DNA of 29,500 bases from Candidatus Thorarchaeota archaeon (GTDB lineage: Archaea; Asgardarchaeota; Thorarchaeia; Thorarchaeales; Thorarchaeaceae): NCBI GenBank assembly GCA_038893995.1, contig JAWAQK010000018.1, positions 10,823-40,322 of the forward strand, read 5' to 3'. The translations under genes and the position numbers were made by a program. Positions 18,367 through 20,434 of the stretch are shown piece by piece. How positions within the stretch are numbered: the first letter of the stretch is position 1; every line of letters starts with the position of its first letter. The notes beneath the pieces were generated by a model that was not told the origin of the DNA, ran no database searches, and saw nothing but the letters and a program-made list of their open reading frames with translations.

Positions 18367-18481
18367 GTGTCTTGTCCCTCTCCAGTGCTGGACGTGGGTC
18401 TAGCGATACTTTTTTAATGGCTGGACCGGGCGTGGCATAGACGGGCCGACACATAATAGAAAAAACTGCGAGGTCATCATG

Positions 18482-18640
18482 ATGCCGGTTGCAGACATCG
18501 AAAAGCGAAGGCTTGCACAACACTACATACTTCAAAAGTCGGTGTGCAGGACATGTGGGGCCACTAATCCCCTGACGGCCAGAAAGTGCCGCAAATGCAA
18601 GACGCGGGACCTCAGGCCCAAGAAGAGCAGGAAGAAGTAG
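18482..18640 (+). CDS. rpl40e: 50S ribosomal protein L40e
   Basis: Below the ORF-track size cut-off. Manual translation: MPVADIEKRRLAQHYILQKSVCRTCGATNPLTARKCRKCKTRDLRPKKSRKK, with the CxxC..NP..CRKC..LRPK signature. GAGGT RBS upstream; alternative ATG at 18479. Confidence 0.93.
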   Translation: MPVADIEKRRLAQHYILQKSVCRTCGATNPLTARKCRKCKTRDLRPKKSRKK

Positions 18641-18695
18641 TCACATCAGAAACCCCGTCGGTGCAGGCTCTATGTCCTGTCGCCATGCATCACTC

Positions 18696-18702
18696 TTAAA
18701 TA
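18696..18702 (+). promoter_or_regulatory. TATA box of the tRNA gene
   Basis: TTAAATA ending 29 nt before tRNA position 1. Confidence 0.6.
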
Positions 18703-18730: not shown

Positions 18731-18872
18731 GGGCGGGTGATCTAGCGGTTAACGTGGCGTCAGTACAATGCTGATGTCCGGGCCGAGTGATGCCGCCTTC
18801 ACACGGCGGATGTCAGGGGTTCGAATGGGCCCGGGATTTCCCCGGGTACAGAATGTCCCCTCCTGCCCACCA
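18731..18872 (+). tRNA. tRNA-Val(CAC) with two non-canonical introns (18752-18787 and 18826-18855) and encoded CCA
   Basis: Exons 18731-18751, 18788-18825 and 18856-18872 join to GGGCGGG TG ATCT AGCGGTTA TGAT G CCGCC TTCACAC GGCGG ATGTC AGGGG TTCGAAT CCCCT CCTGCCC A CCA (76 nt). Acceptor, anticodon and T stems pair fully and the D stem has 3 bp. Anticodon CAC at 18800-18802. Confidence 0.93.
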
Positions 18873-18956
18873 CTGTATGATTCGTCTGCCATGCTCATGA
18901 TCGCTTTAGATCGTCCCCGTCTTGAGATCACACTACATAACCGAAGGGTCAGACAA

Positions 18957-19172
18957 ATGCCAAGACAGATCACTGATGTCGAGAAGTTCATCAAGATGAG
19001 TGAGAGCGCAAAGGAATGTCGCGTCAAGAGAGGCAGCAATGATGTCAAGCTCAAATTGAGGACGGAAAAGTACCTCTACACAATTGTGCTTGCCCCTCAA
19101 GAGGCCGAGTCTGTGATCCAGCGGGTTAAGTGCAGCATAGTAGAGGCAAGGAAGTCTCCGGAAACGAGCTAG
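18957..19172 (+). CDS. rpl38e: 50S ribosomal protein L38e
   Basis: MPRQITDVEKFI..CRVKR..VKLKLRTEKYLYTIV matches the eL38 pattern. The real start is ATG 18957; the ORF-track extension runs through the tRNA. Confidence 0.9.
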   Translation: MPRQITDVEKFIKMSESAKECRVKRGSNDVKLKLRTEKYLYTIVLAPQEAESVIQRVKCSIVEARKSPETS

Positions 19173-20434
19173 ACCTCGACGGACTCATTTCTCTCCGGGA
19201 TGTATGCCATCTTACCCTTACTCTTCAGTTCTTGAGCTAACGCCTCGCATGAGTCTGACTCAGCATGTACGATGTAGAACGTCGGATTACCCGTCTGACT
19301 CAAGAGCATGTCCATTAGTCCGCGAGAGTCCGAATGACTGCTCAAGTGGTGGAGGCAGACGTCAGCCGACACATTGTACGTTCTGTTGGCAACAGTCACT
19401 CGCCTGTGGGCAAGTAGCTCCGCTCCTGGGGTTCCGGGAACTTGGAAGCTGACCATAACCAGAGCATGTCTACTGTCACCATGCATCATCTTGAAATACG
19501 AGAAGGAAGCGCCACCCTTCAGCATTCCTGCTGGCGATACTATTATACTTCCTCCCCTTATGGCATCAATGCGGTCCTGGTCAGTGCTGATCACCCTGAC
19601 TTGCCGGACCGCTTGTTCAAACTCCTGTGGTGCGCGAAGGCTCTCGGGATGGTGCAGGAGAATCTCATTTGCGTGTCGTGCCATCCCATCGACGTACACG
19701 GGGTACTTGGACATGATCCCATGTTTGGCGAGTACACATAGTATCTCCTGGCTTCTACCCACAGCAAATGCGGGTATTAGAACTGACCCTCCGCGTTGCA
19801 TTGTTTCCACTACTGTGCGCAACAGGCCTTGTTCGATCTCATCTCTAGCTGGGTATCTCTGCCTTGCATAGGTGGCCTCTGTGACCACATAGTCATGAGA
19901 AGGCAGGTCTCTACTGGCTGCCTGGCTGAGGCGTGTTTCAATTGTATTGAAGTCGCCCGTAAACAGGATCCTCTTTCCGTTGTATTTCACAGACACCATT
20001 GCACTGCCCGGGATATGTCCCGCATTGAACAGTGTTACCTCGAACTTCCTTCCTAGGGAAACTGTCTCTCCATACCTGAGGAACTGACATTGCGTCCTGA
20101 CACGTGAGATGTCCTCCCTATCGAATGGCAGCCGTCCACCTGACAGTGAGAACATGTCCTCTATGAGGAGCGACGACAGATCCGAGGTGGCGGGGGTGCA
20201 GAAGAGGGATAGGTCCTCGTCATTCAAGAGTAGGGGAATTGCCCCTGAGTGGTCAAGATGAGCATGAGTGAGTACCACTCCCTGCAGGTCATCCGTGTCC
20301 AGTCTTGCTGGAAACAACGGATTGTCTTGGAACTTGACTCCATAGTCCACCAGTAGACTCTCTCCATCTACAGTCAGGAGAAACCCGGATCTGCCAATCT
20401 CTCTACAAGACCCTAGAAATGTTAGTTCTGCCAT
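19169..20434 (-). CDS. MBL-fold beta-CASP ribonuclease (aCPSF2-like, no KH domains)
   Basis: LGSCREIGRS, THAHLDHSG, AGHIPG, FTGD, TEATY, PAFAVGRSQE, SSHSD and VHAE motifs. Confidence 0.9.
   Translation of the reverse strand: MAELTFLGSCREIGRSGFLLTVDGESLLVDYGVKFQDNPLFPARLDTDDLQGVVLTHAHLDHSGAIPLLLNDEDLSLFCTPATSDLSSLLIEDMFSLSGGRLPFDREDISRVRTQCQFLRYGETVSLGRKFEVTLFNAGHIPGSAMVSVKYNGKRILFTGDFNTIETRLSQAASRDLPSHDYVVTEATYARQRYPARDEIEQGLLRTVVETMQRGGSVLIPAFAVGRSQEILCVLAKHGIMSKYPVYVDGMARHANEILLHHPESLRAPQEFEQAVRQVRVISTDQDRIDAIRGGSIIVSPAGMLKGGASFSYFKMMHGDSRHALVMVSFQVPGTPGAELLAHRRVTVANRTYNVSADVCLHHLSSHSDSRGLMDMLLSQTGNPTFYIVHAESDSCEALAQELKSKGKMAYIPERNESVEV

Follow-up and report, generated by a model that had tools for sequence, protein, structure and literature searches.

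Hidden multi-intron tRNA genes have already been published for Asgard archaea. In Atabeyarchaeia and Freyarchaeia, 92-95% of the tRNA genes contain introns (Valentin-Alvarado et al. 2024, PMC11291895), and a census of 90 Asgard genomes revealed that the inserts lie at BHB sites and have been gained repeatedly (bioRxiv 10.64898/2026.10.13.758758). Kaneta et al. (2018, PMC5829648) reported that the predicted tRNA sets of Asgard archaea are incomplete, pointing to unidentified disrupted genes, and inferred an (alpha-beta)2 EndA with an L1 loop in Asgard archaea, a Thorarchaeote included. Non-canonical and multiple tRNA introns, cut by a heterotetrameric EndA that bears a specificity loop, are also classic for Thermoproteales and other Crenarchaeota (PMC3241643). 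In Aeropyrum pernix, pre-tRNA-Thr carries a BHB intron in the D-loop, and in vitro cleavage of a D-loop intron was shown for the enzyme type of this organism (PMC3241643). The crenarchaea-specific loop of the enzyme, K44 in particular, confers cleavage of D-loop introns and of introns in relaxed motifs (Hirata et al. 2011, PMC3241643).

Here we analysed a window of 29,500 nucleotides from a Thorarchaeota genome. We consider it about 90% probable that positions 18731-18872 of its plus strand are a functional, single-copy Thorarchaeota tRNA-Val(CAC) gene with two introns that are spliced by EndA and RtcB. The gene and its genome share several features with the Asgard tRNAs described previously (PMC11291895; bioRxiv 10.64898/2026.10.13.758758): several short protein-spliced introns per gene, often in the D-arm or T-arm, D-arm introns that escape standard finders, BHB-compatible sites, two EndA paralogues, and intron positions that turn over among relatives. 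They differ from the preprint (bioRxiv 10.64898/2026.10.13.758758) in lineage, since Thorarchaeota are unnamed in its main text, in the length of the T-loop introns (about 30 nt here versus a median of 22-23 nt), and in that the introns of this genome are concentrated at two places, one after nt 20-22 and the other at 55-61 within the T-loop. Multi-intron tRNAs of Thermoproteales and other Crenarchaeota have D-loop and T-loop introns as well, as far as the citation of Sugahara et al. 2008 in PMC11291895 goes. The A. pernix EndA is likewise an alpha2-beta2 enzyme whose alpha subunit bears the crenarchaea-specific loop with Lys44 (PMC3241643); however, Crenarchaeota are another phylum, and the predicted beta chain here is less like theirs than like the proteins of M. 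kandleri and M. jannaschii. The incomplete tRNA set and the (alpha-beta)2 layout of Kaneta et al. 2018 (PMC5829648) are both seen in this genome, but the hidden genes were not resolved in that study, whereas 45 of 46 anticodons are accounted for here. A sequence-only reading of this DNA had named multi-intron tRNAs as characteristic of Thermoproteales, in agreement with the literature above, and had also pointed to a link with Thorarchaeia. The latter is consistent with the Thorarchaeote included by Kaneta et al. and with the nearest homologues of EndA alpha, which come from Candidatus Thorarchaeota MAGs (up to 75% identity).

All parts of the gene lie on the plus strand. Exon 1 (18731-18751, 21 nt) contains the 5' strand of the acceptor stem, U8, the 5' strand of the D-stem and the D-loop up to A21. 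It is followed by intron 1 (18752-18787), which is 36 nt long and separates nt 21 from nt 22 of the D-loop. Exon 2 (18788-18825, 38 nt) contains the 3' strand of the D-stem, the anticodon arm with the anticodon CAC at 18800-18802, the variable loop, the 5' strand of the T-stem and the T-loop up to A59. Intron 2 (18826-18855), 30 nt long, interrupts the T-loop at 59/60, and its junction may slide by one position (59/60 or 60/61) with the mature RNA unchanged. Exon 3 (18856-18872, 17 nt) consists of U60, the 3' strands of the T-stem and the acceptor stem, the discriminator A73 and an encoded CCA at its 3' end (18870-18872). In linear numbering the inserts thus follow nt 21 and nt 59, and neither is at 37/38. 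When joined, the three exons form a 76-nt RNA that ARAGORN calls as a full-length tRNA-Val(cac), with the cloverleaf of a class I tRNA. All stems are paired: the acceptor stem has 7 bp with a single G.U (5:68), the anticodon stem has 5 GC-rich bp and a 7-nt loop with U33, CAC and a purine at 37, and the T-stem has 5 bp and the loop UUCGAAU. The variable loop is 5 nt long, and U8, A14, the GG of the D-loop and A21 are kept. The sequence-only reading, which had proposed a tRNA-Val(CAC) with non-canonical introns of 36 and 30 nt and none at 37/38, had the coordinates exactly right. It had also noted a TATA box upstream; a TATA-like box, CTTAAATA, can be read from the sequence at 18695-18702, which places it about 29-36 nt ahead of the first mature nucleotide. 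This box is a putative promoter of the gene. Most of the genome's other tRNA genes, Pro(TGG), Gly(TCC) and Pro(CGG) among them, are preceded by similar A/T boxes in the same register.

The gene escapes the two standard tRNA finders that we applied, ARAGORN and Rfam; the sequence-only reading had suggested that ordinary tRNA scans could miss it. In the raw DNA of the region, no tRNA was found by ARAGORN, by Rfam at the gathering score or by Rfam at E<=10, and the silence of the Rfam tRNA model RF00005 on the unspliced locus, even at E<=10, is expected given 66 nt of inserts. ARAGORN in intron mode, applied to the raw region or to versions with one intron removed, returned nothing or a false Arg(ccg). 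Two other candidates were rejected. A sul1 match on the hairpin of intron 2 (Rfam, E<=10) is due to chance, with 14.3 bits against a cut-off of 36.2, and a C/D-box guide RNA in intron 1, which has CUGA and UGAUG words, was excluded because 36 nt is too short.

We searched the genome with an anchor scan that looks for a T-stem, a T-loop consensus (an interruption being allowed), a 7-bp acceptor stem, U8 and CCA. The real genome yielded 49 distinct 3' ends, 42 of which belong to genes of 200 nt or less. The reversed, non-complemented genome, which served as a control, yielded three ends, none of them in a gene this short. At every anchor, the D-arm and the anticodon arm were then fitted by an interior solver that permits optional inserts, and the spliced products were checked in ARAGORN. 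Solutions were ranked by the fewest introns first and by BHB pairing score second; an earlier ranking was dropped because it favoured extra introns and cut intron 1 in two. The first-ranked two-intron solution of the motif-independent solver places introns of 36 and 30 nt behind nt 21 and nt 59, respectively. The junctions of the sequence-only reading are therefore the top solution of an independent structure-plus-BHB search.

Comparison with relatives revealed that the gene is conserved. The region was BLASTed against 40 related genomes, and spliced alignment then gave the orthologous gene at 16 loci. Exon 2 matched in many relatives, with 85-97% identity in the best five matches. In 15 relatives, as here, rpl38e directly follows tRNA-Val(CAC) in the same orientation, and this conserved position establishes orthology. 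The orthologue of genome G021 (L004), likewise located upstream of rpl38e, is intronless; the counterparts of exons 1 and 2 adjoin in it precisely where the junction is predicted, it is scored as a tRNA by Rfam (62.8 bits), and its D-loop and T-loop are those of the predicted mature Val(CAC). Comparison with this orthologue supports the junctions, which as cut sites are predictions. L004 differs from the gene here by four bases, all of which fall in two compensatory pairs: pair 5:68 is G.U here and C-G in L004, and pair 52:62 is G-C here and A-U in L004. Pair 5:68 joins exons 1 and 3, and pair 52:62 joins exons 2 and 3. This indicates that selection acted on the assembled molecule. Across the 15 spliced orthologues, both partners have changed in 7 of the 21 stem pairs, that is, these pairs covary.

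The intron content of the locus varies among these orthologues. No intron is present in L004 and L006-L008. A T-loop intron alone is found in L005, L012, L021 and L022, and a D-arm intron alone, near 22-25, in L011, L014, L015, L018 and L019. L013 and L017 have one intron in the variable region or at the edge of the anticodon stem, L009 and L016 have introns in the variable region and the T-loop, and the source Thorarchaeota genome has the combination of D-loop 21/22 and T-loop 59/60. The intron at 59/60 also occurs in L021 and L022, where its 4-bp helix is perfect. L017, L021 and L022 were read by eye and not by spliced alignment; L010, which is without CCA and has G37, and L020 were left out as orthologues. 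Since the intron content at Val(CAC)-rpl38e varies among genera of one family, the locus offers a compact natural series for the study of intron gain and loss. No homology of the two introns to the introns of relatives or of other tRNA genes in this genome was evident beyond the pairs that the motif requires.

Both introns are in relaxed BHB motifs, and intron 2 is near-canonical. The canonical BHB has a helix of four exon and four intron nucleotides, which end two nucleotides before the 5' cut and the 3' cut, respectively. This two-nucleotide spacing to each cut was observed in both introns. The central helix of intron 1 is formed by 18746-18749 and 18782-18785 (C-G, G-C, G-C, U.G) with four of four pairs, and its BHB score is H=4, h=0, h'=1. 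A proper outer exon helix is absent: instead of a bulge, a 3x3 internal loop next to the D-stem contains the 3' cut. In intron 2, 18820-18823 pair with 18850-18853 (U-A, U-A, C-G and a G.A mismatch), which gives three of four pairs. The score is H=3, h=5, h'=1; the outer exon helix is the whole 5-bp T-stem, and h' is broken after 1 bp. Thus a central 4-bp helix with canonical cut spacing is present in both introns (with the G.A mismatch in intron 2), and neither has the strict hBHBh' form with both outer helices and true 3-nt bulges. Such relaxed motifs at both introns are what a broad-specificity EndA is needed for. The 142-nt precursor folds with an MFE of -69.7 kcal/mol (z = -3.3). In the MFE fold the acceptor stem, the anticodon arm and the T-stem are retained and each intron is folded on itself; the internal hairpin of intron 1 pairs 18756-18765 with 18769-18778, and a 6-bp hairpin in intron 2 pairs 18830-18835 with 18841-18846. 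The fold also contains the exon-intron helix of intron 1. For intron 2, an alternative register shifted by one base has a G.U and three Watson-Crick pairs (H=4, h=4, h'=2). It would place the cuts at 58/59 and 60/61, and A59 and U60 would be lost from the T-loop. As far as sequence comparison can tell, the orthologues argue for the predicted register over the shifted one.

The genome encodes enzymes that would suit these motifs. Two genes match PF01974, and they encode EndA alpha and EndA beta. EndA alpha (L001:1474-2052, minus strand, 192 aa; PF02778 and PF01974) is nearest to the catalytic alpha of the A. pernix heterotetramer (3P1Z_B, E 7.6e-44). Alignments revealed that the Tyr/His/Lys triad is kept, with its His at the position that is Ala in entry 3AJV, and that the specificity loop IRKPR aligns to VEKPR of A. 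pernix, that is, to K44 and R46, two residues whose role is described in PMC3241643. EndA beta (L002:1450-2097, minus strand, 215 aa) has both EndA domains. In alignments to M. jannaschii EndA and to alpha, it has Thr where the catalytic His would be; the alignment to alpha also shows a gap of nine residues at the specificity loop. It is more similar to the proteins of M. kandleri and M. jannaschii than to the beta chains of Crenarchaeota. A catalytic alpha with the triad and the loop Lys/Arg and a separate non-catalytic beta are thus both present. These alignments support an (alpha-beta)2 layout of the broad-specificity type, made up of a loop-bearing alpha and a non-catalytic beta, in line with the relaxed-specificity EndA that the sequence-only reading had predicted. 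An RtcB ligase is also encoded in the genome (598 bits).

We propose the following pathway. The gene would be transcribed from its own TATA-type promoter into a precursor that comprises a short leader and about 142 nt, within which the acceptor stem, the anticodon arm and the T-stem would form. The 3' part of each intron would pair with four exon nucleotides located two nucleotides upstream of the 5' cut, giving a relaxed BHB. A heterotetramer-type EndA, with a catalytic alpha bearing the crenarchaeal-type loop and a structural beta, would then cut both introns, and RtcB would join the three exons into the 76-nt tRNA. From the gene, the motifs and the enzymes we infer that the RNA is transcribed, cleaved at precisely these phosphates and ligated. 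It is also conceivable, though we give it little credence, that Asgard EndA selects where to cut in part by docking on the body of the folded tRNA, like a ruler, as eukaryotic Sen does. This idea comes from two observations, namely that both motifs are imperfect and that the better-paired register of intron 2 would give a dead tRNA. If it were true, thorarchaeal multi-intron tRNAs would illuminate the origin of the eukaryotic mode of tRNA splicing.

The same imperfect motifs raise the question of whether a real Val(CAC) gene might be processed in another way, with another cut register (for example, removal of A59 and U60) or with one insert retained. The shifted register of intron 2 is indeed the better paired one, and D-arm inserts without a canonical motif may not all be introns (bioRxiv 10.64898/2026.10.13.758758). 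However, the alternative cuts would leave a 5-nt T-loop or a D-loop without UUA, whereas the predicted junctions give exactly the loops of the intronless orthologue. The contact between the D-loop and the T-loop is needed by every tRNA, and retention of the 36-nt D-loop insert and the 30-nt T-loop insert would break it. Different processing is therefore unlikely, and splicing at the predicted junctions is preferred. That the locus is no gene at all, but a cloverleaf formed by chance in intergenic DNA, hardly deserves credence: apart from the silence of the two standard tools, nothing speaks for it. It is refuted by the reversed-genome control, in which no short anchor occurred, and by orthologues that are both syntenic and covarying; in addition, the gene supplies an anticodon that the set would otherwise lack.

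A decaying relic is very improbable too, although intron 2 has a mismatch in its central helix, a helix that is perfect in Asn(GTT), L021 and L022. Its function would then be covered by Val(UAC), whose U34 can in principle read G and would wobble on GUG, or by a second copy in the unassembled 9% of this incomplete genome. Against decay, all stems are intact, the differences from the nearest orthologue are solely compensatory, and the promoter box is retained. The sequence-only reading had left it in question whether another Val(CAC) gene exists; exon BLAST and two structural scans of the 91%-complete assembly found no second copy. The locus is thus apparently the sole copy in the genome, with the reservation that the missing DNA could hold another. 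The other anticodons found are also single-copy apart from Met, and Val(CAC) fits this set. Among the other valine genes, Val(GAC) is intronless, and the T-loop of Val(UAC) is interrupted by an intron of 44 nt. We therefore retain the reading of a functional, two-intron Val(CAC) gene.

The tRNA gene is flanked by genes for two small ribosomal proteins of the eukaryote type, both in its own orientation. Upstream is the gene for L40e (18479-18640, plus strand, 53 aa; PF01020, E 9.8e-8), and downstream is rpl38e, encoding L38e (18957-19172, plus strand, 71 aa; PF01781, E 2.1e-11). A gene for a beta-CASP/metallo-beta-lactamase RNase (19169-20434, minus strand, 421 aa) converges on rpl38e, and the stop regions of the two overlap by 4 nt. 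An ORF at 18768-19172 (134 aa) is an in-frame upstream extension of L38e, whose true start is 18957, and the extension is without a Pfam match. The sequence-only reading had held that a spurious ORF masks the tRNA gene. This was not borne out, because the recorded gene call is the 71-aa L38e alone and the 134-aa product is not on record; Val(CAC) therefore lies in unannotated intergenic DNA in this record. The cluster of the 71-aa L38e includes a 115-aa member from a Logan assembly (equivalent to 18825-19169, plus strand) that runs into the tRNA gene. It is probably an upstream extension made by a gene caller.

Val(CAC) is one of many such genes in this genome. ARAGORN and Rfam report about 28-31 tRNAs in the 91%-complete genome, several of them mistyped, a count that would wrongly suggest a defective decoding set. 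Our scan, together with manual reading of three loci, accounts for 45 of 46 expected anticodons, with one gene each and three for Met; it is the hidden genes, Val(CAC) included, that bring the set to this number. At least 17 tRNA genes were missed or mistyped by ARAGORN and Rfam. The census includes an Asn gene with four introns, Arg(UCU) and one Met gene with three each, and Pro(GGG) and Ala(GGC) with two each. The sequence-only reading had expected other cryptic tRNAs, and here it was correct; it had also called the two-intron layout unusual, whereas such genes are the norm in this genome. Thr(UGU) was not found by any scan of the 91%-complete genome, and it may lie on unassembled DNA or have a stem-internal intron that is invisible to the scan. 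To look for a second Val(CAC) or for Thr(TGT), a loose regex scan of anticodon stems was tried but proved unspecific; a CCA-free structural scan, used in its place, gave no additional tRNA-like candidate in the genome. D-arm introns were observed in 11 genes, mostly after nt 20, and T-loop or T-arm introns in 13 genes, the junctions outside Val(CAC) being approximate. In 12 of the 13 genes the T-loop or T-arm intron measures 29-31 nt; the length is thus nearly constant, although the sequences are unrelated. The solver mishandles class II tRNAs, and for Leu(CAG) an 88-nt reading is more plausible than the 78-nt reading of the solver.

Several other tRNA genes of this genome deserve mention. Arg(CCG) and Arg(GCG) are tandem duplicates (G000:C19:5562-5699 and C19:6131-6268), and ARAGORN mistyped one of them and missed the other. 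Their 31-nt D-loop introns differ at one base, which indicates that the intron was copied by gene duplication, and this pair is the exception to the absent homology between introns. Four genes are without an encoded CCA, namely Gly(CCC) (G000:C2:19667-19767), Glu(UUC) (C2:108488-108562), Leu(CAA) (C5:52384-52483) and Leu(UAA) (C39:4392-4505), whereas about 40 other tRNA genes encode it. Finally, Glu(CUC) (G000:C2:12009-12122, minus strand), read by eye, has an apparent 36-nt intron that separates nt 9 from nt 10, ahead of the D-stem, which is a rare position for a tRNA intron.
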